64,000 nucleotides of DNA, from assembly GCF_963678835.2 (NCBI RefSeq), contig NZ_CAXXCH010000002.1, forward strand, positions 98,690 to 162,689, given 5' to 3'. This document shows, piece after piece, positions 24,065-37,960 of the stretch. Every line of letters starts with the position of its first letter. Position 1 is the first letter of the stretch. The translations under genes and the position numbers were made by a program. The notes under the pieces are model-generated. The model ran no database searches and was not told the DNA's origin. It saw nothing but the letters and a program-made list of their open reading frames with translations. The stretch comes from an uncultured Desulfuromonas sp. (GTDB lineage Bacteria > Desulfobacterota > Desulfuromonadia > Desulfuromonadales > Desulfuromonadaceae).

Positions 24065-24880
24065 ATGATACGACGTTTTTATTTTTTCAGCGTTTTGGGT
24101 GCAGTGATCCTGTTGCTGACCACCGTCGGTTGCAAGCCTTATTTTGTGTTGGCCACCCAGCAGGACAAAATCATGCTGGAGCAGGTGCTGGATCAGGAGA
24201 CACAGCAATTGGATCAGTTGGATACGCTGACCGGGCGCCTTGAATCGATGCAGGATGATCTGGTTGCCCATCAGTCGCAGTCCATTACTGAGCTCCAGCA
24301 GAGAATGGCGAACCAGGATAAACAGCTGATGGCGTTGAAAAATCAGCTGGCAGAACTGGATCAGGCCTTTGAAAACTTAAGGCAGGAGCATTCCGCAGAG
24401 CCGGTTCGCTACAACGACATGCAAAGTGTGGCGGTCGACACCGATACGACGGCCAAACAGGTGATTGGTGCGGTGGAGCAAGTGTATATTTCTCCGCCCG
24501 GTCTTTTGCTGAATGCTCGCATTGATACCGGTGCCACAACCTCCTCCATTGATGCCCGCAATGTCGAGCCGTTTGAGCGCGACGGCAAACGATGGGTCCG
24601 TTTTGAAATCACCGATCCGGAGAGTGACGAGCCGGTTGTGCTGGAGTGCCGGGTGGTGCGTCGGGTCAAAATTATTCAGGCCATCACCGAAGAGAAAGAG
24701 CGTCGCTATGTGGTGGAACTGCTGGTTGCCCTCGGCAATGTGACGCGCAGTGCCGAATTTACCTTGTCGGACCGTGATCATGTCGAATATCCGGTGTTGA
24801 TTGGGCGCAATATCCTCATGGATTCAATGACCGTGGATGTCAGCAAGAAGTTCCTCTCCGTCCCGACCCATTCCTATTAA
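24065..24880 (+). CDS. Lipoprotein with coiled coil and C-terminal retropepsin-like domain (DUF785, annotated 'ATP-dependent zinc protease' family)
   Basis: Trimmed to the ATG at 24065. The lipobox is LLLTTVGC. A Gln-rich coiled coil follows. The C-terminal block ARIDTGATTSSIDA...WVRFEI...LSDRDHVEYPVLIGRNIL matches my recollection of the DUF785/RimB-like family. Confidence 0.7.
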   Translation: MIRRFYFFSVLGAVILLLTTVGCKPYFVLATQQDKIMLEQVLDQETQQLDQLDTLTGRLESMQDDLVAHQSQSITELQQRMANQDKQLMALKNQLAELDQAFENLRQEHSAEPVRYNDMQSVAVDTDTTAKQVIGAVEQVYISPPGLLLNARIDTGATTSSIDARNVEPFERDGKRWVRFEITDPESDEPVVLECRVVRRVKIIQAITEEKERRYVVELLVALGNVTRSAEFTLSDRDHVEYPVLIGRNILMDSMTVDVSKKFLSVPTHSY

Positions 24881-24892
24881 CGGATTATCCCG

Positions 24893-26410
24893 ATGCCTAG
24901 AGTTCTCTTTTACAGTGTTATTGTCGCGTTGTTTGTTCTCGGGCTGGGGTTGATGTGGGTACGGCATGCCCAGACCAATGTGCCGTTGCTTCCCGGCGAA
25001 CAAGCCGAAGTGTGGCTGGTTGAGGCCAAAATCAATTTCAGTGCAAAAGGTGGCCCGGTTCGAGTCAGTCTGGATATTCCGGATCATCTGCCCCGTTTCA
25101 AGATGGTCAACGAGCAGGCCGCATCGCCCGGCTATGGTTATTCCGTGGTTGATGCCGGTGACGGCAACCGCCGGGCGGTGTGGACGATTCGTAATTCCAC
25201 CGGCCCGCAAACGCTCTATTATAAGATCCAGGTGACTCCCGAACCGTTGTCCGAGGTCAGCCGGGTTGCCGCGCCGCGAGCACCGCTGGAAATTTTCTGG
25301 GAGGAATCCCAGTTCGGTGCGGCGCGCCATGTTCTGGAGCTTGCTCATGCTCGGTCGGATTCAGTCCTGACCATGTGCAGTGAATTGATCAAGCTTGTGA
25401 ATGCCGGCGATAAAGACCAGAATGTTTCCCTGCTGCTGTCCTCAATGCCGGTGGAGATTCTGCTTGAAAGACTTTTTAATTACGCGGGGATTCCCACCCG
25501 GATTGTCAAAGGTCTTTACTTGGAAGAGAACCGCCATAACCTGAAGCTTGCCCCGGTGCTGATCGTCTATGACAGCGGCGGTTGGGTGATGTTTGATCCG
25601 GTCTCAGGGGTGCAGGGTCCCCCGGAAAATTTCATGCTGTGGAACCTTGATGATTTCTCGTTGCTTGATGTCAGCGGCGGGCGCAGCTCCAAGGTCAGTT
25701 TTGCCGTGACCCGCCAGAGTATTTCCGCCAAGCAGCTGGCGTTTGATGGTCCTGCGGAGACCCGTTTTTCCCTGTTTGACATGCAACGGCTGCCGGTAGA
25801 AGAGCAGAATATGCTCAAGGTGATGTTGCTGTTGCCGCTGGGGGCGCTGGTGGTGGTTTTTATGAATGTCATTGTCGGGGTCCGCACCTCCAGCACCTTT
25901 ATGCCGATTTTGATCGCGTTGTCCTTTCTGCAGACTGCTTTGCTGCCCGGTTTGATCAGTTTTATCGCCATTGTTTCTTTTGGATTGTTGCTGCGCAGCT
26001 ACTTGTCCCACTTCAATCTGTTGCTGGTGGCGCGCATCTCCACCATCGTTATCCTGGTGTTGATGATCATTGTCTTCTCCAGCCTGTTCGGTTATCGGAT
26101 TGGCTTTAACACCGGTATGACCGTCACGTTTTTCCCGGTGATCATCATTGCCTGGACCATTGAACGTATGTCGATTCTGTGGGAAGACGAAGGGCCGCGT
26201 GAGGTGGTGGTGCAAGGTGGCGGCAGCTTGCTGGTGGCCATCTGTGCCTATCTGCTGATGAGCTGGTCAACGGCCGCCTATCTAAGCTTCAACTTTCCCG
26301 AACTCAACCTGATCGTCCTCGCCCTGATCATGACCATGGGCAATTACACCGGCTACAAGTGGACTGAGTTGCGTCGTTTCCGGGCGTTGCGGCTCAAGTT
26401 GAGGCTGTGA
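24893..26410 (+). CDS. Membrane protein: N-terminal inactive-transglutaminase-like extracytoplasmic domain fused to a 7-TM C-terminal half
   Basis: 505 aa. The order is one N-terminal TM, about 290 aa of soluble region, then about 7 hydrophobic helices. The family assignment is recalled from the conserved pairing with RimK-related ligases and has not been verified. Confidence 0.6.
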   Translation: MPRVLFYSVIVALFVLGLGLMWVRHAQTNVPLLPGEQAEVWLVEAKINFSAKGGPVRVSLDIPDHLPRFKMVNEQAASPGYGYSVVDAGDGNRRAVWTIRNSTGPQTLYYKIQVTPEPLSEVSRVAAPRAPLEIFWEESQFGAARHVLELAHARSDSVLTMCSELIKLVNAGDKDQNVSLLLSSMPVEILLERLFNYAGIPTRIVKGLYLEENRHNLKLAPVLIVYDSGGWVMFDPVSGVQGPPENFMLWNLDDFSLLDVSGGRSSKVSFAVTRQSISAKQLAFDGPAETRFSLFDMQRLPVEEQNMLKVMLLLPLGALVVVFMNVIVGVRTSSTFMPILIALSFLQTALLPGLISFIAIVSFGLLLRSYLSHFNLLLVARISTIVILVLMIIVFSSLFGYRIGFNTGMTVTFFPVIIIAWTIERMSILWEDEGPREVVVQGGGSLLVAICAYLLMSWSTAAYLSFNFPELNLIVLALIMTMGNYTGYKWTELRRFRALRLKLRL

Positions 26411-27372
26411 TGTTGTTCAAAAGCTTGCGTGACATGGGCATTCTCGGCATGAACGCCCGCAATATTGAGTTCATTGGTCGTTACAATCAGCGCAGTCTCT
26501 ATCCGCTGGTGGATGACAAACTCAAAACCAAGAAGCTTGCCCAGCGTTTTGATATCCCCGCGCCAAAGCTGCATTTTGTCATCCGTGAGCAGCACCGGCT
26601 GAGAAATGCGGAAAATCTGTTTCGCAAAATCGACGGCTTTGCCATCAAACCGGCTAAAGGCTCCGGCGGCAAAGGGATTCTGGTGATTCGTGCCCAGGAA
26701 CAGGGTCGCTTTGTCACCACTTCGGGGGCGCGTCTTGATCTCAACGATATTAAACGGCATATCTCCAACATTCTGGCCGGGCTGTATTCTCTGGCCGGCA
26801 CACCGGATGTAGCGATTGTCGAAGAGCTAGTGGCGTTTTCCGAGATGTTCACCGGCTACTCCTATCAAGGTGTTCCCGATATTCGTATTGTCGTGTTTCA
26901 GGGCTACCCGGTGATGGCCATGCTGCGCTTGGCCACCCAGCGCTCCGACGGCAAGGCCAATCTCCATCAGGGCGCCATTGGCGTCGGGCTCGATATCGCC
27001 ACCGGCTCCTCTCTCGATGCTGTGCAGTTCTCCATGCCGCTGGAGATTCATCCCGACACCGGCAAATCGTTGGCGGGTATCGATATCCCCGGCTGGCAGG
27101 AGATCCTCTATCTGGCGGCACGCTGTTATGATATGACCGGTCTCGGCTATATCGGCACTGATATTGTTCTCGATAGCGGCAAGCGTCCGCTGTTGCTCGA
27201 ACTCAACGCCCGTCCCGGCCTGTCGATCCAGGCCGCCAACGGCCAGGGGCTGTTACCGCGTCTGCGCCATATTGAGAACCTGACCGTTAAACACACCAGT
27301 GCCGAAGAGCGGGTTGACTACGTTCTTGCAACGTTCGGATCGACAGCTTCTGTCTCGCCTTATTCTTTTTAA
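26407..27372 (+). CDS. Alpha-L-glutamate-ligase-related ATP-grasp protein (RimK-like)
   Basis: 321 aa. ATP-grasp blocks are KPAKGSGGKGI, IVEE and IGTDIVLD...LLELNARPGLSIQ. The start overlaps the upstream stop (GTGATG). An alternative ATG lies at 26410. Confidence 0.8.
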   Translation: MMLFKSLRDMGILGMNARNIEFIGRYNQRSLYPLVDDKLKTKKLAQRFDIPAPKLHFVIREQHRLRNAENLFRKIDGFAIKPAKGSGGKGILVIRAQEQGRFVTTSGARLDLNDIKRHISNILAGLYSLAGTPDVAIVEELVAFSEMFTGYSYQGVPDIRIVVFQGYPVMAMLRLATQRSDGKANLHQGAIGVGLDIATGSSLDAVQFSMPLEIHPDTGKSLAGIDIPGWQEILYLAARCYDMTGLGYIGTDIVLDSGKRPLLLELNARPGLSIQAANGQGLLPRLRHIENLTVKHTSAEERVDYVLATFGSTASVSPYSF

Positions 27373-27470
27373 ATTTTTAGTGAAGCGGGTGCTTGATTAT
27401 ATTTTAGGTGCCCGCCTTCTTTCTTAAGTAGTGTTTTATGTTTATATCGTAGTAAAAACGTAGAAAACGT

Positions 27471-27499
27471 TTGACTCTTGCCTCCTGTTTTTGTATCTA
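27471..27499 (+). promoter_or_regulatory. Possible sigma70-type promoter of the STAND gene
   Basis: TTGACT (27471..27476), a 17-nt spacer, then TATCTA (27494..27499). The -10 hexamer is poor, so this is tentative. Confidence 0.3.
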
Positions 27500-27533
27500 T
27501 TGTGTAACTTGGCGGATACGCATGGAGGCTGTC

Positions 27534-30500
27534 ATGAAAAAAGAAGCTCTTTCGTCACGAGCAATTGCCCGTAATATTCCCTTGATTTTGGATGAACTTG
27601 GAAAAGCAGATCGAGCACGAATAACCGCAGTTTCAGAGTTATTCAAGGATGCAAAAGAGGTCAATCTGGGCCAATTGCTTCAAGAGCTTTTTCCTGATCA
27701 GCACTCGCGTGAGACCGCTCTTACCGCATTGCGTCAGTTTCGTAAACGATTGAGCGATGCCGCTGAAGAAGCTGGCATTCGGTTTAAGCTGGAAGTTGAT
27801 AGTCTCAAGAAAAATTCTCCGGACGAAAGAACCTGCTGGTTTATCGGCGAAAGTGGTGCCGAGCAGGCTATTTCAAGATTGGTTGAAGGGGAAACGGCTT
27901 TAGTTGATCGTTCAAGCCAGGGGGCGTATGAAATTCGTGATGATAAAATTGTTATTCGCTATTTTGTGTCTTATGCACATAAGGACAAAAAGCTTAAACA
28001 AGACTTCTGTGAGAGACTGTCAGACCAGCTAAACGTTTCATCCAACTATTATTTTGAACAATGGAATGACGAACTGTTGCTGGTTGGTGATGACTGGAAA
28101 GATGAAATTGCCAAAGCAATTGAGAATTGTCATTTCGGTCTGCTGCTGGTTTCAAACAGCTTTTTGGCAAGTCGTTTTATTACAGAGCAAGAGCTACCCC
28201 ATTTTGTCCCCAATAAGCTGGATCGCCCAGAGCCAGGTAAACGAGCTATTCCCGTCGCCTTATCCAAGGTTTTGTTGGATGGAAGCGTTGATCTTAAAGG
28301 GCTTCAAACATATCAGATTTTCCACGATCAAGAGGGAAAGCCTTTTTCTCAGAGGCGCGGAGAAAAAAAAGATCAATTTATCAATGAGCTTTTCCAGCAA
28401 ATTGTTTCAGTAATAAGCACTCGCTTGGTCGTTCCTGAAAGAAAATCCTATAACTATAAGCGTAGTGAAGAGTTCGAAAGATGTTTTTGCCAAGCTATAG
28501 ATGAGCGAAGTTTGGATTGCTATATCGACTCAACGGGATGTATGAGCTCTCTGGATAAATTAAGAGAAGAAGTTGATCCTGAAGAGTTTGATCAACGTAT
28601 CGATGCCGTTACGCAGTTGCTTAATTGGTCCGAAAGCTCTGATTCTCCAGCATACTTTGCCTTGCTGGGCAGCTTGGGTATGGGTAAAACCAGTACCTGT
28701 CTTGAATTTGCCAAACGATTGCTCCATCATCGTAAAAAGAAACCTGAACTTCCCTTGCCAATCTATTTTGACCTGAGACTCCTTGGCGAAAAAGCAAAAC
28801 AAGAGCCTGATCTATCCACCATTATCGAAACCGTATTACGGAAAAGTTGGCGTGGTGGTCTAGAACCCACAGATTTTTCAGCAGCCGAAATCATTGATCT
28901 CGTTCAGCTGCAAGGTGCTATTGCCATCTGGGACGGGATTGATGAAGTTCTTGTTCATTTGACTCCTGCAGGAGGGCAAAGTTTTATTCGTGAATTGCTT
29001 CGGTTGTTGCCACCTTCCGTCATTCAAAAGAACTCGACTCACGGGAAAATGCTTTTCAGTTGTCGAACGCACTATTTCAGAACGCTCCGAGAACAGAAAA
29101 ACTTTTTTTTGGGAGAAGAGCGCGAGGGGATGAAGGTTGAAGATTACCGCGCCTTGATTTTATTGCCTTTTTCCGAAGAGCAGATTCTTCAATATCTTGA
29201 AGAGCATGTTCCTGATCGAGAACCTGAAGAGCTGTTAGATATTATTCAGTCAATTCATAACCTTTCAGAGATGGCAGAGCGTCCCTATACGCTTCGGTTG
29301 ATCGCGGATCAGATTTCTCACTTGGAGCAATTAAAGTTGCAGGGTGTGACAGTCACTGGCGTAACGCTTTATCGTCATATGGTGGAATCGTGGCTTGAAA
29401 GAGATATTGGCAAACATCAACTGACCCCTCATCACAAGCAGTTGCTGATGGAGTTTCTAGCTGCTGAGCTGTGGACACAGGGGCGACGGGACTGGGAAAT
29501 TGATGATCTTGAACAATGGTTAATTGACTTTTTTGAAAGTCATCCTTCGATTGCCGCTCACTATCATGGAAAAAATCGTGAACTCATAAAAGAAGATTTA
29601 CGTACGGCGACATTTCTTGTCCGCGAAGGAGAGAAAACTTTTCGTTTTGCACACAGCTCTTTATTAGAGTTCTTTTTAGCCTGCTACTTGTATCGAGCTC
29701 TTTGCGAAAATCAGATAGAGCGTTGGGACATTGAAGTGGTTAGTCCTGAAACAATTGATTTTTTAGGGCAATTGTTGCTTGAAAGCAATCAAAGAAAAAA
29801 AGAAATAGCTCTTAAGAGTATGTCTGCCATAGCGCGGATGCCTTTAGCACTCAAAGCGAAGAAACTGGTGCTGTCTTATTTTTTAAAATCTTATGGCACA
29901 AGTTATCCGAAGGCTTCGCTTATGGGAGGTGTTTTTGACAAGATTGATCTGAGTGGTGTGAATATAGAAGGTCGTGCGGAACAAAAAATCAACTTTCGAT
30001 CAACTTCCTGGCGAGATAGCAATTTGACACAAGCTCGATTTCGTCATGTTGATTTTGGATCAGCTATTTTCAGCGGAAGTGATCTTGTGCGAACAGAGTT
30101 TATTGATTGTGACATGGTGAGAAATGATTTTAATCATTGCGAATTGGTTGGAACGGTTTTTCGCAAATGTGATTTGACCGCATCATGTTTAGACGATATC
30201 AGGTCTTATCGCTGTAAATTTTTGTATTGCAGGATGGATCAGATGGAAGCCCTGAATCTGAGTCCGCCCTCCATTTTTACTGTGCCAATTGCAAATCAAC
30301 GTGTTGAAAAAGTCTTTCAACAAAAGAACAAAAGGCTATTGATAGCAGGAGGACAGATAGGGTCGATAACAACTTTTTGTTTTATTAAAAGTACTTTCTT
30401 AGCTTCTGGCGGATTAGATGGAACGATAAGACTATGGGATCTGCGTAGCGGAGAATGCCTTCAGCTCTTTGAAGGGCATGAAGGGGAGGTCAGCAGTGTT

Positions 30501-32252
30501 GCCTTTGGTGAGAATGGTCAACTAGTATCCAGCGGATTTGATGGGACGATTCGGTTGTGGAATGTGAGCAAAGGAACGTCTTCCAATGTTCTCAAGGGGC
30601 ATGATGGTGGGGTTAACAGTGTAGCCTTTGGAGGTGATGGGTCTCTGGTCTCCTGCGGGGATGATGGAACGATACGGTTATGGGATATCGACAGAGGGGT
30701 CTGCCGACAAATTTTAAATGGTCACGATGGTGGGGTTAACAGGATACTCTTTGGAGGTGATGGGTCTCTGGTCTCCTGTGGATTTGACGGAACTATCCGG
30801 ATGTGGGACGTGTGCAGTGGAGCATGCTGTCAAGTTTTTAGAGGTCATGATGGTGAGGTCACTAGCATAGCCTTAGAAAATGACTATTTGGTCTCAGGCG
30901 GGGTAGACGGAACAATTAAGCTATGGAGTGTGAGCAGTGGAGTATGCCACAAAGTTTTTGAGGCTCATGATGAATGGGTTTCTGATGTAGCCTTTGGAGA
31001 TGATGGGGTTTTGGCTTCCTGCGGATTTGACGGAACTATCCGGCTGTGGGACATGTGCAGTGGCGTATGCGATCAAGTTCTTAAAGGTCATAATGGTGAG
31101 GTTCACAGTGTGGCTTATAGCGATAGTGGTTTTTTGGTCTCCTGTGGAGAGGATGGAACTGTCCGATTGTGGGATGTAGGCAGTGGTGTGTGTCACCAGG
31201 TTCTCAGAGGCTATGGATGGATGGTTACCAGTGTAGCCTTAAGGGGAGGCCGTTTAGTTACCGCTGGATTGGATGGGACGATTCGACTTTGGGATGTGAA
31301 GAGCGGCACGTGCTTCATGAATCTCAAGGGTCACGGAGTGTTGATTAACAGCGTAGCCTTTGGAGATGATGGGGTCCTGGCTTCTTGCGGATTTGACGGA
31401 ACAGTCCGGCTGTGGGATGTAAGTACTGGAATATGCCGATATATCCTCGATGGTCACGATCAGTGGGTAAATAGTATTGCTTTTGGAGAAGGCGGTCGCT
31501 TGGCCTCTGGTGGCTCAGATGGGACGATACAGTTATGGGATATAGAAAGTGGAGCCTGCCACCAGATTTTTAAGGGGCACGATGGACAGGTTCTTAGCAT
31601 GGCTTTTGGTAAAAATGGGGATCTCGCTTCTGGCGGAGCTGATGGATCGATAAAATTATGGGATGTGGGTGATGGAACATGTCGACGGATCCTTGAAGGA
31701 CATAAAAATGAGATTAACAGTATAGTCTTTTGTGATAATGATGCCTTAGCTTCTTGCGGAATAGATGGAGCGATTTTTTTATGGAATGTAGATAGTGGGG
31801 CATGCCGCCAAATTTTTAAGGAAAATGATAGCTGGCAAAACAGCTTGGCCTTTGATAAGAGGGGCCGACTGGCTTCCGCCGGGGCCGATGGGACAGTTCG
31901 ATTATGGGATGTGGAGAGCGGAGCATGCCTTAAAATTCTAAAGGGTCATCATGGGTGGGGTTCTGATGTAGCCTTTGGAGAAGGGGAAACTCTGGTTTCC
32001 AGCGGAGTAGACGGGGTTGTTCGGCTGTGGGATGTTGCGACAGAGACCGAGAAACTGATCCTTGCTTTTTTTGATAAGCACTCTTGGGCCGCTATTGATC
32101 CTGTTACTGAAAATATTTTGCAAGTTTATGGAGACTTTTGGCGTTATCTTTCTTGGAACGTTCCTTATTTAGAAACATCGAATATAGAAATCTTACCCAT
32201 AGAAAGTTTCGGCCCTTTGCCCTTAGAGGCAGAAGTCAGAAGTTGTAACTGA
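27534..32252 (+). CDS. STAND/NLR-like protein: unknown N-terminal module - TIR - NACHT NTPase - pentapeptide repeats - 14 WD40 repeats
   Basis: The ORF 27471..32252 is trimmed to the ATG at 27534, 5 nt after GGAGG. TIR block: RYFVSYAHKD...GLLLVSNSFLASRFITEQELPHF. NACHT block: Walker A GSLGMGKTS, Walker B IAIWDGIDEV, then FSCRTHYF. About 15 A(D/N)LXX-type pentapeptides follow. Then come 14 units ending in DGT(I/V)RLWD. The whole gene is AT-richer than its neighbours. Confidence 0.9.
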   Translation: MKKEALSSRAIARNIPLILDELGKADRARITAVSELFKDAKEVNLGQLLQELFPDQHSRETALTALRQFRKRLSDAAEEAGIRFKLEVDSLKKNSPDERTCWFIGESGAEQAISRLVEGETALVDRSSQGAYEIRDDKIVIRYFVSYAHKDKKLKQDFCERLSDQLNVSSNYYFEQWNDELLLVGDDWKDEIAKAIENCHFGLLLVSNSFLASRFITEQELPHFVPNKLDRPEPGKRAIPVALSKVLLDGSVDLKGLQTYQIFHDQEGKPFSQRRGEKKDQFINELFQQIVSVISTRLVVPERKSYNYKRSEEFERCFCQAIDERSLDCYIDSTGCMSSLDKLREEVDPEEFDQRIDAVTQLLNWSESSDSPAYFALLGSLGMGKTSTCLEFAKRLLHHRKKKPELPLPIYFDLRLLGEKAKQEPDLSTIIETVLRKSWRGGLEPTDFSAAEIIDLVQLQGAIAIWDGIDEVLVHLTPAGGQSFIRELLRLLPPSVIQKNSTHGKMLFSCRTHYFRTLREQKNFFLGEEREGMKVEDYRALILLPFSEEQILQYLEEHVPDREPEELLDIIQSIHNLSEMAERPYTLRLIADQISHLEQLKLQGVTVTGVTLYRHMVESWLERDIGKHQLTPHHKQLLMEFLAAELWTQGRRDWEIDDLEQWLIDFFESHPSIAAHYHGKNRELIKEDLRTATFLVREGEKTFRFAHSSLLEFFLACYLYRALCENQIERWDIEVVSPETIDFLGQLLLESNQRKKEIALKSMSAIARMPLALKAKKLVLSYFLKSYGTSYPKASLMGGVFDKIDLSGVNIEGRAEQKINFRSTSWRDSNLTQARFRHVDFGSAIFSGSDLVRTEFIDCDMVRNDFNHCELVGTVFRKCDLTASCLDDIRSYRCKFLYCRMDQMEALNLSPPSIFTVPIANQRVEKVFQQKNKRLLIAGGQIGSITTFCFIKSTFLASGGLDGTIRLWDLRSGECLQLFEGHEGEVSSVAFGENGQLVSSGFDGTIRLWNVSKGTSSNVLKGHDGGVNSVAFGGDGSLVSCGDDGTIRLWDIDRGVCRQILNGHDGGVNRILFGGDGSLVSCGFDGTIRMWDVCSGACCQVFRGHDGEVTSIALENDYLVSGGVDGTIKLWSVSSGVCHKVFEAHDEWVSDVAFGDDGVLASCGFDGTIRLWDMCSGVCDQVLKGHNGEVHSVAYSDSGFLVSCGEDGTVRLWDVGSGVCHQVLRGYGWMVTSVALRGGRLVTAGLDGTIRLWDVKSGTCFMNLKGHGVLINSVAFGDDGVLASCGFDGTVRLWDVSTGICRYILDGHDQWVNSIAFGEGGRLASGGSDGTIQLWDIESGACHQIFKGHDGQVLSMAFGKNGDLASGGADGSIKLWDVGDGTCRRILEGHKNEINSIVFCDNDALASCGIDGAIFLWNVDSGACRQIFKENDSWQNSLAFDKRGRLASAGADGTVRLWDVESGACLKILKGHHGWGSDVAFGEGETLVSSGVDGVVRLWDVATETEKLILAFFDKHSWAAIDPVTENILQVYGDFWRYLSWNVPYLETSNIEILPIESFGPLPLEAEVRSCN
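27948..28410 (+). other. TIR domain segment of the STAND protein
   Basis: IVIRYFVSYAHKDKKLKQDF...WKDEIAKAIENCHFGLLLVSNSFLASRFITEQEL. Candidate catalytic Glu codons are at 28185..28187 and 28191..28193. Confidence 0.8.
28600..29700 (+). other. NACHT-type P-loop NTPase module (approximate limits)
   Basis: The Walker A Lys codon is at 28686..28688 (GMGKTS). The hhhhDGxDE Walker B motif and a downstream SCRTHYF sensor-like motif are present. The helical/winged-helix continuation runs to about FFLACYLYRAL. Confidence 0.75.
29925..30245 (+). repeat. Pentapeptide-repeat region (about 15 units) inside the STAND protein
   Basis: SNLTQ ARFRH VDFGS AIFSG SDLVR TEFID CDMVR NDFNH CELVG TVFRK CDLTA SCLDD. 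The 5-residue periodicity has the central hydrophobic F/L typical of quadrilateral beta-helices. Confidence 0.75.
30361..32100 (+). repeat. 14 tandem WD40 units (123-126 nt period), enough for two 7-bladed propellers
   Basis: Counted by hand: 14 occurrences of the (D/G)G(T/S/A/V)(I/V)(R/K/Q/F)(L/M)W(D/N/S) blade end. Several stretches of DNA are near-identical between units, for example 30603..30658 vs 30726..30781, and 30987..31051 vs 31353..31417. Confidence 0.9.
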
Positions 32253-32280
32253 CATGATTGCTTAATTGGGAGGAATATCC

Positions 32281-33804
32281 ATGTCAAAACCGGTCAGCAT
32301 GGGACTGAGCAAATCACTGCTGCTTAAGGGGTTTCAATGCCCGAAAGCATTGTGGCTTACCAAGCGGCCACCGGAGTTCGTGCTGCCCGAGCGCCCCGAT
32401 CTCGAAGCCAAGTTTCGCGCAGGCACCGAAGTGGGTATCCTTGCCCAACAGCTTTATCCCGGCGGGGTCGAAGTGCCTTATGAAGGGCTGACCGTTCCGG
32501 CCCAGCTGGCCAAGACCAAAGAACTGATCGAGCAGGGGGCGGACGTCATTTACGAGGCGTCGTTTTCGTTTTCCGCCATCTTTGTCAAGGTCGACCTGCT
32601 GGTGCGTGACGGCGATCAGTGGCAGATTCATGAAGTGAAAATGGGCACCTCGGTTAAGGATGTCAATCTCGACGATGTGGCGATCCAGCACTATGTGTTG
32701 AATGGCTGCGGGCTGTCGATTTCCAAATCCTTCCTCGTCCATATCGACAACAGCTACGTGCGTCACGGTGAGATTGACGTGCAGCAGCTGTTTTGCAGCG
32801 AAGAGGTCACCACCCAAGTCAAGGTGCGTCTGCAGCACATTCCCGACGGCGTGCGCGAGCTGCGCGAAACCCTGCGCCAGCTCAACGAGCCGGACCTCGA
32901 CATCGGCCCGCACTGTACCGATCCGTTTGAGTGTGATTTCATCCCCTACTGCTGGCAGCACATTCCACCCAACTCGGTGTTCGATCTGCGCGGGCGCGGC
33001 ATCAACACGTTTGACCTCTACCGGCGCGGCGTGGTGACCTTTGACGAGATTCCCCTCGACGAACTCAATGCCAAGCAGCGCCAGCAGGTGGAAGCGACGT
33101 TACACCAGCAGGACACAATTCATGCCGAGGGCGTGCAGGCGTTTCTCGACACCCTGTGGTATCCGCTCTATCACCTCGATTTTGAAACCTTCAGCACGCC
33201 GATCCCCAAATTTGATGGCACCCGTCCCTATCAGCAGGTGTCGTTTCAATATTCCATCCACGCCCAACAGTCTACCGGGGCTGAAGCACAGCATTTTGAC
33301 TATCTGGCCCCGCCCAACATTGACCCGCGTCGCGAACTGGTCGAGCAGCTGCTGGCGGTGATCCCGGCAGAGGCGTGCATCCTTACCTACAACCAGAGTT
33401 TCGAAAAGGGGGTGTTGCGTGAGCTGGCCAACCTGTTTCCCGATCTGGCCGACGCCCTCCACCAGCGCATTGACAACATCCGCGACCTGATGGAGCCGTT
33501 TCGCAAGCGCGACCTGTACCGTTGGCAGATGCAGGGCTCCTACTCCATCAAGGAGGTGTTGCCCGCCATGGTGCCGGAGCTGAATTACCAGGAGCTGACC
33601 ATTGCCGACGGCTCAGCCGCCATGCAGGCCTATCACACCATGTGCGCCATGGAGCCGAGTGAAGAGCTGGACCAGCTGCGCCGCGACCTGCTGCGTTACT
33701 GTGAGATGGACACCTGGGCCATGGTCAAGGTGCTGGAGGCGTTGATTGAGGTGTCTGTTCCCCACGGAGACACGGAGGCACGGAGAAGTTCAAAACCAGA
33801 CTAA
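32281..33804 (+). CDS. DUF2779-like protein: N-terminal Cas4/RecB-like PD-(D/E)XK nuclease with 4-Cys cluster, plus a C-terminal exonuclease-like half
   Basis: Trimmed to the ATG at 32281, which follows GGGAGGAA. The N-terminus is SKSLLLKGFQCPKALWL. The distal Cys triad is HCTDPFECDFIPYCW (one early Cys plus C-x5-C-x5-C). The block YHLDFETF is consistent with a DEDD/RNase-H-like exonuclease start. The family name is from memory. Confidence 0.7.
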   Translation: MSKPVSMGLSKSLLLKGFQCPKALWLTKRPPEFVLPERPDLEAKFRAGTEVGILAQQLYPGGVEVPYEGLTVPAQLAKTKELIEQGADVIYEASFSFSAIFVKVDLLVRDGDQWQIHEVKMGTSVKDVNLDDVAIQHYVLNGCGLSISKSFLVHIDNSYVRHGEIDVQQLFCSEEVTTQVKVRLQHIPDGVRELRETLRQLNEPDLDIGPHCTDPFECDFIPYCWQHIPPNSVFDLRGRGINTFDLYRRGVVTFDEIPLDELNAKQRQQVEATLHQQDTIHAEGVQAFLDTLWYPLYHLDFETFSTPIPKFDGTRPYQQVSFQYSIHAQQSTGAEAQHFDYLAPPNIDPRRELVEQLLAVIPAEACILTYNQSFEKGVLRELANLFPDLADALHQRIDNIRDLMEPFRKRDLYRWQMQGSYSIKEVLPAMVPELNYQELTIADGSAAMQAYHTMCAMEPSEELDQLRRDLLRYCEMDTWAMVKVLEALIEVSVPHGDTEARRSSKPD

Positions 33805-33819
33805 AAAGAGATACCGGAC

Positions 33820-33970
33820 CAGTGCTCGGACACACTCCATTTTGTCATCGAAAAGAGCATCTGTAGGAGCGAATTTATTCGCGAATTGTTCTGGTCATTG
33901 ATCCTTATCATGATGGGAATTCGCGGCTGAAGCCGCTCCTACAATGTACAATTTTAAATATGCTGACGTA
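33820..33970 (+). repeat. REP-like 150-nt extragenic element, copy B
   Basis: It aligns with 19221..19370, sharing the identical core CTGTAGGAGCGAATTTATTCGCGAATTGTTCTGG and GATGGGAATTCGCGGCTGAAGCCGCTCCTA. The antisense ORF 33908..34105 is just its translation. Confidence 0.85.
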
Positions 33971-34233
33971 CGAGCAGGATGTTGAAAAAGTCCCGTCCGG
34001 GGATTTTTCAACGACGCAAGCCGAAAATGCAATTTCTGTCTTGCTCACAAAATCAAGGACTTGAAAACCTTTCCTTGACTTTGATCGCCCGTCCATGGGC
34101 TCCACAATCTGTTTTACAACAGCCTGCTAGAAGAGTTTCAGAAGTTTTTAGCTTTAAGGTTTTCCTCCGTGTCTCAGTATCTCGTGGTAGAAAAGGCTTT
34201 CAATAAAAACAATCCCATCATAATGGACTCCTG

Positions 34234-35481
34234 ATGCGTTTTATTCATACTTCTGACATTCACCTCGGCAAAACCTACCGCAATGCACCTGGCGAAACCG
34301 AGCGTTACGATGACTTTTTCACCTGTCTGGCCCAGATCGTTGCCGATGCCGTGACCGAACAGGTTGATGCGCTGCTGATCGGCGGCGATCTGTTTCATGT
34401 CGGCCAGATTTTGCCCAAGACCTTTGCCAAAACCATTGAAACCCTGCAGCCGCTCAAAGATGCTGGCATCCCTTGCATTGCCATTGAGGGCAACCACGAC
34501 TGGATTCACCGCCGTGACAGTATTTCGTGGATGGAGGCGCTGTCGCAGATGGGCTATATCAAGCTGCTGCGTCCGGCACGCACCGACGAGGGCGGCTATC
34601 ACTTTGCGACCTTTGACGAGGAAGCCGGTATGGGCGGCCACGTCAAAATCGGTGATGTGAATATCTACGGCCTCGGTTATATCGGTGCCCAGGCGGGCAG
34701 CCATGTTGAGCGGATTTGTCAGGCCGTAACCACGGACAACAACCTGTTGTTGTTCCATGTCGGTATCTGGAGTTATTCGCCGGTGGAGATCGGCAACATG
34801 AAGCCGGACGAAGCCCATCCGCTGGCGGAGACATTCAGCTACGTGGCACTGGGCCATGGCCATAAACCCTACGTGGTGAAAACGCCCGACGGCACGCCCT
34901 ATGCCTACAATCCCGGCTCGCCGGAACGGGTCAATTTCGGTGAAGAAACGTATGACAAAGGCTATTACTTCGTCAGTATTGAGGATGGCCATGTCTCGGT
35001 AGAGTTCAAAACCACCATGCCACGGCCGATGATGGTGGCGACCATTGATCTGGGCGGTGCCCCGCATGCTGATGAGGCCATGGATTCCTTTGCTCGTCAG
35101 GTGCAGGAACTTGTCGCTGAGAAGACGGATAACCGCCGCCCATTGCTGGAACTGAAGCTGGTTGGCAAGGTGGGCTTCCATCCGTTTGAATTGGGCCGCG
35201 AGCGGTTGCGTGCCGCCCTCGACGACATCGCCCAGCCTTTGCATGTCGAAATCAAAAATCATCTATCGCTGGTCACCCGCGCCAAAGACAACGCTACCGC
35301 CAAGAAGAGCCTGAGCGAGATTGAGCAGGATGTGTTGCATGAGCTGGTGGGCGCGTCGAGTGACTATCAAGGCCGCGAAGAGGAACTGGTAAAGCTGTCT
35401 TTGCTGTTGCGCGATGCCGTGCAGAAGGGCGATGTCGATGGCGATGAGCTGTTGGCGTTGCTCGATGGGGAGGGAGCGTAA
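34234..35481 (+). CDS. sbcD: SbcD/Mre11-family metallophosphoesterase nuclease
   Basis: 415 aa. Phosphoesterase motifs occur in order: TSDIHLG, GGDLFH, GNHD, and further His motifs. It sits directly upstream of an SMC-like ATPase with a 1-nt gap. Confidence 0.85.
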   Translation: MRFIHTSDIHLGKTYRNAPGETERYDDFFTCLAQIVADAVTEQVDALLIGGDLFHVGQILPKTFAKTIETLQPLKDAGIPCIAIEGNHDWIHRRDSISWMEALSQMGYIKLLRPARTDEGGYHFATFDEEAGMGGHVKIGDVNIYGLGYIGAQAGSHVERICQAVTTDNNLLLFHVGIWSYSPVEIGNMKPDEAHPLAETFSYVALGHGHKPYVVKTPDGTPYAYNPGSPERVNFGEETYDKGYYFVSIEDGHVSVEFKTTMPRPMMVATIDLGGAPHADEAMDSFARQVQELVAEKTDNRRPLLELKLVGKVGFHPFELGRERLRAALDDIAQPLHVEIKNHLSLVTRAKDNATAKKSLSEIEQDVLHELVGASSDYQGREEELVKLSLLLRDAVQKGDVDGDELLALLDGEGA

Positions 35482-35482
35482 C

Positions 35483-37960
35483 ATGCAAATTCTTTCCATC
35501 CATCTGAAAAACATCAAATCCCACCGCGATACCACGCTGAACTTTGCGCTTGGCATCAATGTGTTGTCCGGCCCCAACGGTGTCGGCAAGAGTACCGTGT
35601 TTGAAGCAATCGGCTATGCATTGTTCGGCGTGGATGCTCAGAGCTTTGTCGGCAAGGTGGATCGGTTTGTCTCCATTGGTGCCAAACGTGGCGAGATTGG
35701 TGTCACCTTTATGGTGGGCGAGGAGAATTATCAGGTCAGCCGCACCGTGGGTACGCCGAGCAAGTGGCTGTTGGCCAAGGAGGTCGGCGGTGATTTCGAG
35801 GTGGAGGAGCACAAGGACATCAAGGAAACCGAGGCACGGCTCAAAGAATTGCTCGGGCTGGACAACGGTCGCTCCCTGGCGGAGCAGTTTGAGTTGGTGA
35901 TCGGTCCGTTTCAGAATGAATTCCTCGGCCCGTTCGTTGAAAAGCGGCCGACAACACGGCGCAACAAGTTTGACGAGATTCTCGGCATTGACTCATGGCG
36001 TAAGACGTTCAGCGAGACCAATGCCTTGCAAAAAGCGATCAAAAATAAGGTCGAGGTGTTGGAAGGGGCCATCGGACCGCTCAAGGATCAGGTGGCACTG
36101 TTGCCGGAAAAACGGGGTGCGCATAAAGCCGCCAAGCAGGATCACGCGACAACGGCCAAAGAGCTGACCGATAAACAGCAGAAACTCCAGCAGCTTCTGG
36201 AACAGCTCAAGGCCTTTGATGATCGTGAACAGGCCCTGCGTCAGGTGACGGTCGAGGTGGAAAAACTCGCCGAGCGCATTGACAACGGCCATGAAAAAAT
36301 TACCCGGCAAAAGATCTTGATCGTTGAGGCGGAGAAGTCACGCCAGCTTGTTGCCGACAACGCGGCCGGAAAGCAGGCTTATGAACAGGCGGAGCAGCGT
36401 TTGACCGGGTTGCGCGAACAACAGAAGCAACAACGGCGTCTTGAGCAGGAGCTGGCCGCCTTGACCAATCAGAGTTCCGCGTTGACCGCCAGTATTGAGA
36501 CGGAGACCAAAGGGATTGCCGTGGCCCGTCAGGAGCTGGTTGCAGAACGGGAGGCGCTGAAACAGAAATCTGCGCTGCTGAATATTGCCGAGACGGTGCA
36601 GCAACGAGCCGAGCAGTTGCCGCAGTTGCGTGAGACCATCAAGCAACAGCGCGACCAGTTGGGTCGTCTGGATGGTCGTCGCTTTGGTTTGGAAGAGGGC
36701 CGTGACAAGCTCGGTGAAGGGGTGTGCCCGTTTTTTCAGGAAAAATGCCTGAACCTCGCCGAAAGTCCGTCCGCAGATGTGTTTTCCGTCAAGCTGGATG
36801 AGCTGGCAGGGGCGCGCAGCCGCGTGCAGGAAGAGTTGCTTGATCTGGAGCGGCAAGAAGCTGAAGCGGTGAAGGCCCATGAGCAGATCCAGGCGCTTGT
36901 GGTGCAGCGGAAGGCCGTGGAGGAACAGGTGGGACAGCTGGAAGGCCGTGGTAAAGAGCTTGATCGTCGTGAGTCTGCTCTGTCTAGCACACAAAAAGAG
37001 CTTGAATTGTTGCGTCAACGTCTGGCCGCCAAACAGGAAGAACTGGCGACCTTTACCTCGCTCACTGCGGAGATTGAAACGGCTGAAGCCGCTGTGAAGC
37101 TTCATCAGCAGGCACGTGATCTTTACGTGGCCCATCAGGGGCAGGCGGCTAAGCTGGAAGGGTTGCAGCTGGAGTTGGCTAAATTTGAGGCGTTTCTAAA
37201 ACAGCTTCAGGGTGAACTGGCGACGAAACAGCAGGAACAGAAGACTCTCGCCGAACACTATGATGCTAAAGCGCACCAGTCCTTGCGTGACGAAAAGGAT
37301 GGCCTTGGTCGTGACGTCGGTTCGCTGGGGACGAAGTTGCAAAGCCTGGCGCAGGACATGACGCGGTTGGCCGCTGAAATCGACGCCTTGAAGGCCATCG
37401 AACACGAGATTATGGCCAAACAGGCCCAAATCAAAGCCTATGGCGAGAAAGAAGAACTGGTCAAATTTCTGCGCAACAGGGTGTTCAACAAAGTGTCGGC
37501 GTCCTTATCGGAGCGCTTTCGTGAAGAGATCAGCCAGCGAGCCAATCAAATTTACCGCATCATTGCCGAGGTCGATGAGGAACTGGCCTGGGGTGACAAC
37601 TACCAGATCGTGCTGCGTGACATGGTCGATGGCGAACTGCGCGAGCGCGCTGATGATCAGCTCTCCGGTGGCCAGACCATGAGTGCGGTGGTCGCCCTGC
37701 GCTTGGCGATGTTGCAGACCATTGGCGCACGCATTGCCTTTTTTGACGAGCCGACCTCCAATCTGGATGCCGCCCGCCGCGAAAACCTGGCCCATGCTTT
37801 TCGTGCCATCGATGTCGGCAAGGAAGAGGTGACGGAGCACTGGTACGACCAGCTGTTTCTCATCAGCCACGATGTGGCATTCACTGAAGTGACCGACCAG
37901 ATGATCGACTTGGATCGCATGGATTCATGCCAAGAAGAAGACGTGTCATGCCGTACGTGA
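35483..37960 (+). CDS. sbcC: SbcC/Rad50-family ATPase, compact (about 825 aa), with C-x6-C in place of a CXXC hook
   Basis: Trimmed to the ATG at 35483. Walker A is GPNGVGKST. A long Gln/Glu/Leu coiled coil follows. The central VCPFFQEKC lies at 36725..36748. The signature motif is LSGGQ and Walker B is IAFFDEP. Confidence 0.85.
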   Translation: MQILSIHLKNIKSHRDTTLNFALGINVLSGPNGVGKSTVFEAIGYALFGVDAQSFVGKVDRFVSIGAKRGEIGVTFMVGEENYQVSRTVGTPSKWLLAKEVGGDFEVEEHKDIKETEARLKELLGLDNGRSLAEQFELVIGPFQNEFLGPFVEKRPTTRRNKFDEILGIDSWRKTFSETNALQKAIKNKVEVLEGAIGPLKDQVALLPEKRGAHKAAKQDHATTAKELTDKQQKLQQLLEQLKAFDDREQALRQVTVEVEKLAERIDNGHEKITRQKILIVEAEKSRQLVADNAAGKQAYEQAEQRLTGLREQQKQQRRLEQELAALTNQSSALTASIETETKGIAVARQELVAEREALKQKSALLNIAETVQQRAEQLPQLRETIKQQRDQLGRLDGRRFGLEEGRDKLGEGVCPFFQEKCLNLAESPSADVFSVKLDELAGARSRVQEELLDLERQEAEAVKAHEQIQALVVQRKAVEEQVGQLEGRGKELDRRESALSSTQKELELLRQRLAAKQEELATFTSLTAEIETAEAAVKLHQQARDLYVAHQGQAAKLEGLQLELAKFEAFLKQLQGELATKQQEQKTLAEHYDAKAHQSLRDEKDGLGRDVGSLGTKLQSLAQDMTRLAAEIDALKAIEHEIMAKQAQIKAYGEKEELVKFLRNRVFNKVSASLSERFREEISQRANQIYRIIAEVDEELAWGDNYQIVLRDMVDGELRERADDQLSGGQTMSAVVALRLAMLQTIGARIAFFDEPTSNLDAARRENLAHAFRAIDVGKEEVTEHWYDQLFLISHDVAFTEVTDQMIDLDRMDSCQEEDVSCRT

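Follow-up and report, generated by a model that had tools for sequence, protein, structure and literature searches.

Our analysis identifies, in a 64,000-nucleotide window of chromosomal DNA from a Desulfuromonas-like bacterium, a 1,572-codon gene that is in all probability not native to its surroundings. On balance we favor reading it as a horizontally acquired, stand-alone bNACHT-type STAND gene with the clade 11 architecture, working as an anti-phage abortive-infection sensor. The features on which this reading is built are the following, in window coordinates.

27385..27415, + strand: terminator-like hairpin (12-bp stem, 6 G-C pairs, T-rich tail) closing the Zn-protease / 7TM-transglutaminase / ATP-grasp operon
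27416..27533, + strand: AT-rich leader with the ribosome-binding site GGAGG at 27524-27528 (direct sequence reading)
27534..32252, + strand: coding sequence of the NNH6-TIR-NACHT-pentapeptide-WD40 protein, 1,572 aa (ORF list, translation, GC/GC3, full-length homologues)
27561..27878, + strand: NACHT N-terminal helical domain 6 (NNH6), aa 10-115 (PF22737, E 2e-28)
27963..28331, + strand: TIR domain (TIR_2), aa 144-266 (PF13676, E 2e-13)
28584..29888, + strand: NACHT-type STAND NTPase with nucleotide-binding, helical and winged-helix parts, aa 351-785 (PF05729, E 2.6e-5)
29913..30242, + strand: pentapeptide-repeat beta-helix of about 21-22 units, aa 794-903 (PF00805, E 3e-13)
30321..32036, + strand: fourteen WD40 blades with a period of 41 aa / 123 nt, aa 930-1501 (Pfam WD40, 14 stretches, E 6e-111)
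32037..32252, + strand: 71-aa C-terminal tail and stop codon (translation)
32253..32280, + strand: 28-nt spacer to the DUF2779 gene, with the ribosome-binding site GGGAGG at 32269-32274 (direct sequence reading)

Reading frame and modules

The open reading frame spans 27471..32252, and its likely start is ATG 27534, a choice supported by homologue alignments that begin at residue 1-8. The extent given in the first-pass annotation was thus reproduced by the ORF list, the upstream ribosome-binding site and the homologue alignments, and the 4.7-kb frame is intact and fully open.

The N-terminal ~138 residues, previously left unassigned, contain the Pfam domain NNH6. Its AlphaFold2 model is confident (pLDDT >90) and consists of helices and three short strands, and Foldseek returned no solved-structure neighbor for it. 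NNH6 is kept in relatives in which PNP_UDP_1 replaces TIR in the effector slot, and we therefore take it, from these comparisons, to be the fixed cap at the N-terminus of proteins in this NACHT branch, where it would probably help to dock or release the effector. The TIR domain that follows matches those of TLR1/2, TIRAP, AbTir, SARM1, SPARTA and SpbK in Foldseek with a probability of about 1. Its candidate catalytic glutamate, E220 (codon 28191-28193), occupies the same alignment column as the Glu of '...W-TEYEL' in 7uxr and that of '...W-TNYEL' in AbTir, both bacterial TIR NADases, and is conserved in at least 90% of 47-55 homologues. We thus predict that the TIR domain is an NAD+-consuming effector.

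The Pfam NACHT match (aa 376-561) scores 24.6 bits, just below the 26.7 cut-off. The Walker A motif (G379-T386), the Walker B / NACHT signature D467-G-I-D-E471 (28932-28946) and the 'SCRTH' motif containing R511 are invariant or nearly so across the family. The model of this region has a pLDDT of 86.9, and its best Foldseek matches are the animal NLRs NLRP14, NLRP9, NLRC4, NOD2, NLRP3 and NAIP5 (E 2e-11 to 1e-8), followed by Cdc6/ORC and Avs4. Profile and fold searches therefore bear out the earlier assignment of both domains, the NACHT profile match remaining sub-cut-off. The codons put forward for mutagenesis are also the right ones: 28686..28688 encodes the Walker A lysine K385, and 28185..28193 encodes E218-Q219-E220, of which E220 is the conserved residue.

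The pentapeptide stretch, which links NACHT to the propellers, had been credited with about 15 repeats; we count the 21-22 in-phase units in an unbroken 5-residue register. The AlphaFold2 model has a matching strand periodicity of 5 residues, and Foldseek pairs the helix with AlbG and 6fls. The count of 14 WD40 blades was correct. All 14 are in register, with a mean pairwise identity of 0.49 in the blade alignment, and are underlain by a DNA repeat family of 123-nt period. Among solved structures, the best match to the family profile is 2ymu, the 14-blade WRAP propeller of Nostoc (E 6e-204), and Apaf-1 is also matched (E about 1e-115). The blades are expected to form two 7-bladed propellers, and we predict that these are the sensor. 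In the family alignment, the C-terminal tail carries a conserved consensus, '...AWRxLGW...PAExFGxLP'.

Composition and genomic setting

The gene has a GC content of 0.444 and a GC3 of 0.387, compared with GC3 values of 0.646 for the ATP-grasp gene, 0.746 for the DUF2779 gene and 0.682 and 0.664 for two other flanking genes, in agreement with the earlier remark that it is poorer in GC than both neighbors; the sample lines cited for that remark (25/60 G+C at 27541 and 34/60 at 32401) are exact. When the 64-kb sequence is scanned in 4.7-kb windows, GC is lowest at this gene, 5.0 sd under the mean for non-overlapping windows of that length (z = -5). GC and GC3 are low in all five modules (GC of 0.45 in NNH6, 0.41 in TIR, 0.43 in NACHT, 0.40 in the pentapeptide helix and 0.47 in WD40). 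Since three homologues (L149, L150 and L152) have the GC content of their own hosts, the low GC is particular to the Desulfuromonas-like copy.

As the first-pass annotation had it, the gene occupies the whole gap between the RimK-like ATP-grasp gene, whose stop codon ends at 27372, and the DUF2779 gene, whose true start is ATG 32281, 28 nt beyond the stop of the NACHT gene. The foreign segment is bounded on the left by the hairpin, which begins 13 nt past the ATP-grasp stop codon, and on the right by the spacer 32253..32280, in which no terminator-like site was called; GC is back at 0.58-0.60 from about 32400. We presume that the gene has its own promoter within the leader. A sigma-70 consensus scan called no site in the 161-nt upstream spacer, and a by-eye reading suggests, as a promoter candidate, TTGACT at 27472 with a weak TATCTA downstream of it.

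In relatives, the gene is absent from the 64 ATP-grasp loci whose downstream sequence extends for 5 kb or more and from the 16 DUF2779 loci that have 5 kb or more of upstream sequence. The slot 5' of DUF2779 differs in every relative and holds a type I restriction-modification system in one (L097). Because the composition is foreign and the gene is missing beside either flank in relatives, we consider it a horizontally acquired, single-gene insertion, a claim that rests on composition and flank comparison. The insertion proposed earlier stands on these two counts; a true empty site in a near-identical genome was not found, nor did we see an integrase, transposase or flanking repeats that explain the arrival of the gene.

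The nearest defense-type gene, SoFic, is 6.6 kb off, with housekeeping-looking genes between, so that the NACHT gene lies outside any tight defense island and its defense context is weak. The five homologues that we examined are likewise solitary, each in an unrelated neighborhood (dnaE/sucCD; hpn-like genes/aspS; a glg cluster; hisS/ispG; and, for Cystobacter L154, mostly unannotated genes), and no conserved partner gene was found beside them in their different genomes. Three of the five are near other defense or toxin-antitoxin-like genes; a ParE-RHH toxin-antitoxin pair, a DUF2442 and NTase_sub_bind pair, and HEC-01 adjoin some of them. Of the database checks, PADLOC gave weak ThsB-like TIR matches (E 2.6e-6) and no full-length model for the protein, NCBIfam has no equivalog for it, and no relatives were found on viral contigs.

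The family and related systems

The first-pass annotation could not match the five-module arrangement to any characterized system. Sequence searches and the catalogue of Kibby et al. indicate that it is already catalogued and widespread rather than novel, with dozens of database proteins sharing the order. At E <= 1e-30, 794 cluster representatives match, and at least 62 of the best 150 homologues share the full five-module set in this order. Full-length homologues are 32-46% identical, the closest reaching 46% over its full length and 55% over aa 1-800. In relatives, the effector slot holds a TIR, a divergent TIR, PNP_UDP_1 or an unrecognized domain on a constant NNH6 and NACHT-repeat chassis. 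The family has many members in Myxococcota (Cystobacter, Hyalangium, Archangium). Its carriers are often social or multicellular (Myxococcota, Frankia, cyanobacteria), organisms in which other cell-death roles have been proposed, an observation that counts against an antiphage reading.

The architecture appears to match clade 11 of Kibby et al., an assignment made by module architecture. Clade 11 is listed in their Table S1 with NACHT, pentapeptide and beta-propeller modules, and its N-terminal effectors are swappable (TIR, PNPase, nuclease, caspase, SIR2), with NNH6 present or absent (bioRxiv 10.1101/2022.07.19.500537); the same variable effector on a NACHT-pentapeptide-propeller chassis is seen here. 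The Table S1 entry WP_063793287.1 from Frankia sp. (NNH6 4-114, NACHT 356-720, pentapeptide 831-868, propeller 935-1585; bioRxiv 10.1101/2022.07.19.500537) has the module order and spacing of our protein, with an unannotated gap where the latter has its TIR; the literal string NNH6+TIR is absent from that table. The domains listed for the 27 tested bNACHT proteins include neither a beta-propeller nor pentapeptides (bioRxiv 10.1101/2022.07.19.500537), and we found no propeller-bearing bNACHT among experimentally tested proteins.

A diverse range of bNACHT proteins confer phage protection on E. coli, for which the Walker A lysine is required. They include bNACHT09, a 957-aa TIR-NACHT protein of E. 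coli with antiphage activity against T2, T3, T4, T5, T7 and lambda. Like our protein, bNACHT09 is a one-gene system with an N-terminal TIR fused to a NACHT NTPase, but it lacks NNH6, pentapeptides and WD40. Between the two, sequence similarity does not extend beyond the P-loop (44 aa, E 4e-4), which implies a different NACHT clade and a different sensor. Avs/AVAST proteins are also single-protein STAND sensors, with an N-terminal toxic effector and C-terminal repeats that bind conserved phage proteins, and Avs4 (8dgf) is a significant Foldseek match (E 6e-7). However, Avs sensors are mainly TPR-like helical repeats and not WD40, our NTPase bears the NACHT-specific D-G-h-D-E signature, and none of the PADLOC Avs models matched the protein.

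WRAP (Npun_R6612, 2ymu) of Nostoc punctiforme carries, as here, a C-terminal 14-blade WD40 region forming two 7-bladed propellers on a STAND ATPase. According to PMC9218822, which credits the WRAP and TIR-STAND pair to Dunin-Horkawicz et al. 2014, TIR and propeller are on two separate co-transcribed STAND proteins, and the blades of WRAP hardly differ from one another; in our protein the modules are fused and the blades more divergent. Apaf-1 and the animal NLRs NLRC4, NOD2 and NLRP3 share the tripartite logic of effector or adaptor, STAND NTPase and repeat sensor. Apaf-1 has two WD40 propellers, as predicted here, and animal NLRs provide the nearest fold to the NACHT module. Yet Apaf-1 joins an NB-ARC (AP-ATPase) to a CARD adaptor in place of NACHT and a predicted enzymatic TIR, animal NLRs sense with LRR rather than WD40, and both lack NNH6 and the pentapeptide helix. 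[quoted passage not shown] Their DUF4062 is a TIR-like family distinct from the canonical TIR_2 found here, and Kibby et al. place TEP1 in another NACHT clade, clade 16 (bioRxiv 10.1101/2022.07.19.500537).

Functional interpretation

Domain order and fold matches agree with the NLR-like conflict sensor first suggested, which we keep as the best functional reading, and we infer an antiphage function by analogy. The same architecture might instead serve regulated cell death, self/non-self recognition or stress surveillance, as in fungal HET-E/NWD NACHT-WD40 incompatibility proteins or 'guard' NLRs that watch a host process, which we judge unlikely. The abundance of the family in Myxococcota, the NNH6 member listed for Frankia and the remark of Kibby et al. 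(bioRxiv 10.1101/2022.07.19.500537) that multicellular bacteria are enriched in NACHT proteins favor such a role. So do the very uniform, recently amplified blades of several homologues (mean identity 0.86-0.91), a pattern described for WRAP and fungal NACHT-WD40 proteins, and bNACHT25, which reportedly senses perturbation of host DnaJ and not a phage protein directly. However, a recent single-gene import is a better fit to a shared 'pan-immune' gene than to a lineage-specific recognition system, and all tested roles of bacterial NACHT/STAND proteins with toxic effectors have so far been antiphage. Moreover, the host is a Desulfuromonas-like bacterium, and we know of no social life cycle in this group.

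We give somewhat less credence to the TIR acting as a signal generator, whose cyclic-ADPR-type or related nucleotide would activate a separate effector from another locus, as in Thoeris and type IV Thoeris/caspase systems. The ThsB-like models are its best matches in the defense library, and the closest solved TIR relatives, 7uxr and AbTir, reportedly make cADPR isomers (Manik et al. 2022). Nevertheless, no ThsA, SLOG, Macro, SAVED or caspase-type partner adjoins the gene, the five homologues have no conserved neighbor, and a PNP-type phosphorylase in the same slot of relatives better fits a self-contained toxic effector than a signaling module.

It seems to us very improbable that the imported gene is silent or decaying and persists as a passenger of no current use to this host. 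Expression may be limited by a codon composition very unlike that of the host (GC3 0.39), the scan called no sigma-70-like promoter, and disrupted propeller genes are reported to be common in the WRAP branch; on the other hand, the long open frame with its good ribosome-binding site, the retention of all family-invariant catalytic and structural residues, the 14 of 14 blades in register and the confident models argue for a working protein. We disfavor most strongly an old core gene whose low GC is a mere by-product of repeats: the WD40 region is compositionally unusual by itself (GC skew as high as +0.39), but the low GC/GC3 spans five modules, homologues elsewhere share the GC of their own hosts, the gene is missing in all relatives having either flank, and even the closest homologue is distant.

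By analogy, then, the protein most likely senses phage as a single-protein system and brings about the death of the infected cell. Our working model draws on Apaf-1, animal NLRs, Avs and the tested bNACHT proteins. At rest, the nucleotide-bound NACHT module would be held closed by the propellers and the beta-helix. A phage protein, or a host factor perturbed by the phage, would bind at the variable faces of the WD40 propellers and so allow nucleotide exchange and NACHT oligomerization. The N-terminal TIR domains would then cluster and complete their NADase active sites around E220, and NAD+ would be depleted or turned into ADPR-type products, so that growth of the infected cell would stop before phage release.

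Gene boundaries and protein modules

The gene occupies most of one open frame of the + strand:

27471-32252, + strand, open frame
27524-27528, + strand, GGAGG, six bases before the start codon
27534-32252, + strand, NLR-type gene, probable start ATG 27534

Since the alignments of homologues to the NLR-type protein begin at their own residues 1-8, we consider ATG 27534 a sound start, and counting from it gives the same 1,572 codons that the first-pass annotation had reported. The domain-level reading made there was also correct. The helical N-terminus that it had left unassigned is NNH6, one of the NNH domains named by Kibby et al. (bioRxiv 10.1101/2022.07.19.500537).

Modules of the NLR-type protein and their profile matches
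aa 10-115: NNH6 ("NACHT N-terminal helical domain 6", PF22737), E 2e-28
aa 144-266: TIR_2 (PF13676), E 2e-13
aa 376-561: NACHT (PF05729), E 2.6e-5, 24.6 bits against a cut-off of 26.7
aa 794-903: pentapeptide repeats, about 21-22 units in unbroken register, E 3e-13
aa 930-1501: 14 WD40 blades, period 41 aa, mean pairwise identity 0.49, E 6e-111

Because the Pfam NACHT match is marginal, the NACHT module was examined by its motifs and its fold; PF05729 is present in the precomputed database Pfam lists of most homologues. The NTPase motifs are intact. Walker A (GxxGxGK[TS]) reads G379-S-L-G-M-G-K385-T386, with G, K and T invariant in 61 aligned relatives. The Walker B signature D[GAS]hDE, by which Kibby et al. 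(bioRxiv 10.1101/2022.07.19.500537) tell NACHT apart from the remaining STAND NTPases, reads D467-G468-I469-D470-E471, and its D, G, D and E do not vary within the family alignment; across 47-61 homologues both motifs are invariant or nearly so. The AlphaFold2 model of aa 341-940 (pLDDT 86.9, pTM 0.78) has NLRP14, NLRP9, NLRC4, NOD2, NLRP3 and NAIP5 as its top Foldseek PDB matches (E 2e-11 to 1e-8), with ORC/Cdc6 and Avs4 ranking below the animal NLRs. The predicted structure thus presents the features of a NACHT fold, namely an AAA+ core with a helical and winged-helix extension, nearest to NACHT proteins, and for its C-terminal part the matches are AlbG and 6fls, both pentapeptide proteins.

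The AlphaFold2 model of aa 1-345 reached a pLDDT of 88.3. Its TIR half matched the TIRs of TLR1/2, TIRAP, AbTir, SARM1, SPARTA and SpbK with a Foldseek probability of about 1 and a TM (target) of 0.5-0.62, and Foldseek found no solved-structure neighbour for its NNH6 half. The TIR motif is intact as well: in sequence alignments to two bacterial TIR NADases, E220 (...SRFITEQE-L) falls on the Glu of the TEYEL motif of 7uxr and of the TNYEL motif of AbTir (7uwg/7uxu), the latter Glu being catalytic in AbTir, and it is retained in at least 90% of the homologues. The fold and the conserved Glu at the catalytic position together predict an NADase-type TIR.

Against solved structures, the family profile matched the 14-blade Nostoc WRAP propeller (2ymu) with E 6e-204 and Apaf-1 with about 1e-115. 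An Apaf-1-like AP-ATPase was considered and set aside: the likeness to Apaf-1 is limited to the WD40 part, there is no NB-ARC Pfam match, and NACHT NLRs top the fold search. The mean pairwise blade identity, 0.49 in the NLR-type protein, is 0.91, 0.87, 0.86 and 0.73 in four homologous proteins (P0050, P0017, P0051 and P0002, respectively), which suggests recent amplification or homogenisation of WD40 blades in those genomes, as in WRAP. The work on WRAP had already connected prokaryotic innate immunity with STAND proteins, TIR domains and WD40 arrays that were amplified recently (PMC9218822).

Base composition and genomic setting

The composition of the gene is foreign to its surroundings. The 60-base sample lines of the first-pass annotation contained, on recounting, the same 25 and 34 G+C. 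The gene as a whole has a GC content of 0.444, against a mean of 0.538 (sd 0.019, non-overlapping 4.7-kb windows), and is the minimum-GC 4.7-kb window of the sequence (z = -5.0); its GC3 is 0.387, against 0.646 in the ATP-grasp gene upstream, 0.746 in the DUF2779 gene downstream, and 0.682 and 0.664 in two further neighbours. Low GC is common to all five modules and is not confined to the repeats. Since three of five homologues match the GC of their own host, the low value points to a recent import rather than to a family trait. The edges of the segment are well marked:

27385-27415, terminator-like hairpin with a 12-bp stem, at the left edge, ending the upstream operon
32281, ATG start of the DUF2779 gene with the RBS GGGAGG, at the right edge, 28 nt after the stop of the NLR-type gene

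Two local features of the segment are recorded here. An exact 12-nt repeat, TTGCTTAATTGG, occurs at 32258-32269, in the 28-nt spacer, and at 28617-28628, inside the NLR-type gene, most likely by chance. The WD40-coding region at 30400-32000 shows a GC skew that climbs to +0.30 to +0.39, against about 0-0.15 elsewhere, presumably from the repeated Gly/Asp/Trp-rich blade codons and not from a replication strand bias.

The window is chromosomal, with dnaX, pyruvate:ferredoxin oxidoreductase, chemotaxis and signalling genes, and three tRNAs. On the upstream side, the ATP-grasp protein shares 86% identity with that of one Desulfuromonas MAG and 74-75% with those of others, and the Zn-protease/7TM-transglutaminase/ATP-grasp cluster to which it belongs is kept in 80 loci; of these, 64 extend at least 5 kb downstream, and none of the 64 carries the NLR-type gene or DUF2779. 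On the downstream side, seven metagenomic relatives (L092, L097, L100, L103, L104, L118 and L146) retain the order DUF2779-SbcD-SbcC, and the NLR-type gene is absent from all 16 DUF2779 loci with at least 5 kb of upstream sequence. No two of the three relatives examined have the same gene ahead of DUF2779: in L097 the place is taken by a type I restriction-modification system, in L100 by a DUF2868/DUF3482 pair and in L103 by DUF2797 with GGT. This may be a variable integration spot. An empty site was sought by scanning genomes with the ATP-grasp protein and metagenomes with DUF2779, which yielded many relatives of each flank. The closest contigs (L118 and L146, SbcD 92-94% identical) start inside DUF2779, the upstream side being absent from them; remoter relatives keep either flank without the NLR-type gene, and in none of them are the two flanks adjacent. 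In SbcCD, the contigs JTFO01012629.1 and ERZ1673962 NODE-8479 show 92-96% identity.

Beside the NLR-type gene there is no integrase or transposase ORF and no adjoining tRNA, and the direct and inverted repeats that flank it are only short, chance-level ones. A scan of viral contigs with the family alignment found no relative. The family behaves as solitary and mobile: five homologues on long contigs all stand alone, without a shared neighbour, and three of them have further genes of conflict type close by.

Contexts of the five homologues on long contigs
L149: flanked by dnaE and sucCD, beside a ParE-RHH toxin-antitoxin pair (L149 14954-15476)
L150: flanked by hpn-like genes and aspS, with a HEC-01 candidate defence pair 3 kb away (HEC-01A/B, L150 4801-6691, E 4e-140 and 2e-72)
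L153: flanked by hisS and ispG, next to the small genes DUF2442 and NTase_sub_bind (L153 15119-15799)
Azospirillum: inside a glycogen/trehalose cluster
Cystobacter: mostly unannotated genes around

DUF2779 was considered as a functional partner, as the spacer between the stop of the NLR-type gene and the DUF2779 start measures only 28 nt and no terminator was found in it. This was rejected, since DUF2779 has host composition, is absent beside the five homologues, and keeps its synteny with SbcCD in relatives that lack the NLR-type gene. A Lamassu-like defence pair of SbcC and SbcD is less likely than a housekeeping SbcCD, because the LmuB/SMC-type matches are weak and relatives have DUF2779, SbcD and SbcC in the same conserved order. 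A Thoeris system was rejected, the ThsB-like matches of the TIR being weak (E 2.6e-6, PADLOC), the neighbours being the ATP-grasp cluster and DUF2779/SbcCD with no ThsA-type (SIR2/SLOG, Macro, TM) gene adjoining, and no partner being conserved in the five homologue loci.

Three observations concern the neighbours themselves. The cluster at 24002-27372 consists of a Zn-dependent protease (PF05618), an inactive-transglutaminase/7TM protein and an ATP-grasp protein (ATPgrasp_ST), in an order that is constant in the loci L001-L080 of Desulfuromonas, Marinobacter, Halieaceae and others; because this order is kept while all surroundings differ, the cluster behaves as a portable module. The DUF2779 protein, encoded with SbcD and SbcC in the region 32281-37960, has a weak Cas4-like nuclease match and an RNase-H-like domain. 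A second low-GC patch (19027-20961, GC 0.37-0.47), lying directly after a tRNA-Ser(cga) (19027-19114), holds a single gene, that of a Fic/DOC protein at 19840-20961 which PADLOC matches as the defence candidate SoFic (E 5e-105). The patch, at a distance of 6.6 kb upstream from the NLR-type gene, resembles a tRNA-associated defence islet of its own that consists of one gene.

Homologues, variable slot and class assignment

A word-indexed search retrieved about 45 full-length homologues (1,490-1,660 aa, 32-46% identity), with the same Pfam families among the entries listed, from Azospirillum, Roseococcus, Acidobacteriia, Cystobacter, Hyalangium and Archangium, as well as partial entries from Accumulibacter and Gemmatimonadales. 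Their public names ("WD40 repeat", "TIR domain-containing protein") are uninformative, and exact-sequence look-ups of the NLR-type and ATP-grasp proteins matched no record. At E <= 1e-30, an exhaustive search with aa 1-800 gave 794 cluster representatives, of which the nearest is 55% identical, and architectures were scored in the best 150 with the protein's own domains as probes.

Architectures among the best 150 of 794 representatives
NNH6 + TIR + NACHT + pentapeptide + WD40: 62
NNH6 + TIR + NACHT + WD40: 21
NNH6 + NACHT + pentapeptide + WD40: 20
TIR + NACHT + pentapeptide + WD40: 12

The arrangement, for which the first-pass annotation knew of no match, is of a known, catalogued kind. Eight members in which the probes found no TIR (and found NNH6 in seven) were scanned with Pfam over their N-termini. 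NNH6 was present in all eight, and the slot between NNH6 and NACHT held a PNP_UDP_1 phosphorylase in three, a divergent TIR in two and nothing recognised in three. Since the scans find NNH6 throughout and differing slot contents, the chassis is constant and the slot that holds the TIR is variable, a pattern expected of the effector position in a conflict protein. The mean identity of homologues to the NLR-type protein is 0.49-0.55 in TIR/NACHT, 0.36-0.38 in WD40 and 0.29 in the pentapeptide region, values by which the predicted repeat sensor is more diverged than the signalling core.

Kibby et al. (bioRxiv 10.1101/2022.07.19.500537) catalogued bNACHT proteins in their Table S1. In that table, clade 11 is largely NACHT + pentapeptide + beta-propeller, preceded by modules among which are NA-iREase1, PNPase, TIR, caspase, SIR2 and trypsin, with NNH5 or NNH6 caps, and NNH6 appears, among the rows compared, in clade 11 only. 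One entry, NNH6+NACHT+Pentapeptide+BetaPropeller of Frankia sp. R43, has coordinates that nearly coincide with those of the NLR-type protein; others are TIR+NACHT+Pentapeptide_4+BetaPropeller from Actinomyces and NNH6+PNPase+NACHT+WD40 from Cellvibrio mixtus (bioRxiv 10.1101/2022.07.19.500537). The literal combination NNH6+TIR is absent from Table S1 and abundant in sequence databases. Judged by its architecture, the NLR-type protein fits bNACHT clade 11.

The 27 proteins that Kibby et al. tested carry LRR, HEAT, REase, TIR, TM, NNH1 or NCH1 modules, none of them a propeller or pentapeptide repeats, and defence by the tested bNACHT proteins depends on the Walker A lysine (bioRxiv 10.1101/2022.07.19.500537). 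With bNACHT09, the tested E. coli TIR-NACHT protein, the NLR-type protein has the P-loop region alone in common. A 2026 survey of defence-associated STANDs mentions WD40 sensors and bacterial Apaf-1 orthologues, and its experiments, in the passages covered here, deal with other sensor families, mostly TPR-like. An assignment to Avs (AVAST) was discarded, as no Avs model is among the PADLOC matches, the sensor is WD40 and not TPR, and the match to Avs4 is one of general STAND fold. Searches of PADLOC and NCBIfam with the NLR-type protein gave no full-length model and no equivalog.

Proposed mechanism and significance

In Apaf-1, the WD40 propellers are folded back onto the ATPase and stay there until cytochrome c is bound, and in human TEP1, NWD1 and NWD2 a TIR-like NADase is likewise followed by NACHT and then WD40 (bioRxiv 10.64898/2026.05.01.722283, which also summarises the work on Apaf-1). 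By analogy with Apaf-1, NLRC4, NLRP3, Avs4 and the tested bNACHT proteins, we infer that the propellers would hold the NACHT module closed, with the beta-helix as a rigid connector, until they bind a protein of a phage or a host factor that a phage has altered. Nucleotide exchange would then lead to NACHT oligomerisation, the TIR domains, once clustered, would become active NADases around E220, and the loss of NAD+ would stop the cell. The architecture of the gene and its import are near certain, and an antiphage role with NADase output is a plausible prediction. The explanation as a whole, an imported bNACHT-type gene acting through propeller-triggered NACHT oligomerisation, TIR NADase and antiphage arrest, appears to us fairly probable.

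The pentapeptide beta-helix fold of Qnr, MfpA and AlbG mimics B-form DNA. We give a small chance to a joint reading in which the pentapeptide helix would be a DNA-mimic bait and NNH6 a new gating cap for the effector of the slot. Such a bait could target, together with the WD40 faces, phage proteins that bind or modify DNA; the helix, which is placed invariantly, may then be more than a spacer, and the recognition principle may be unlike that of the tested bacterial STAND sensors. If this were true, the NLR-type protein would be a fused, minimal bacterial counterpart of TEP1 and NWD1.

The gene opens no new category of system. The propeller-bearing NACHT branch appears to bear the closest likeness to Apaf-1 and to the eukaryotic NWD/TEP1 proteins, and bacterial NLR-like proteins with WD40 sensors have been catalogued computationally; we found no experimental tests of them in the literature, which makes this gene a reasonable experimental candidate. 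It is a convenient test case, being a clean single-gene import, seemingly self-contained and with its motifs intact. Together with the obvious point mutants, K385A and E220A, it could show whether the propellers recognise phage proteins, as well as what the conserved pentapeptide helix and the NNH6 cap contribute. For annotation, the result means that a full NLR-type conflict protein stands behind a gene for which public records give no more than the label "WD40 repeat protein" or "TIR domain-containing protein".
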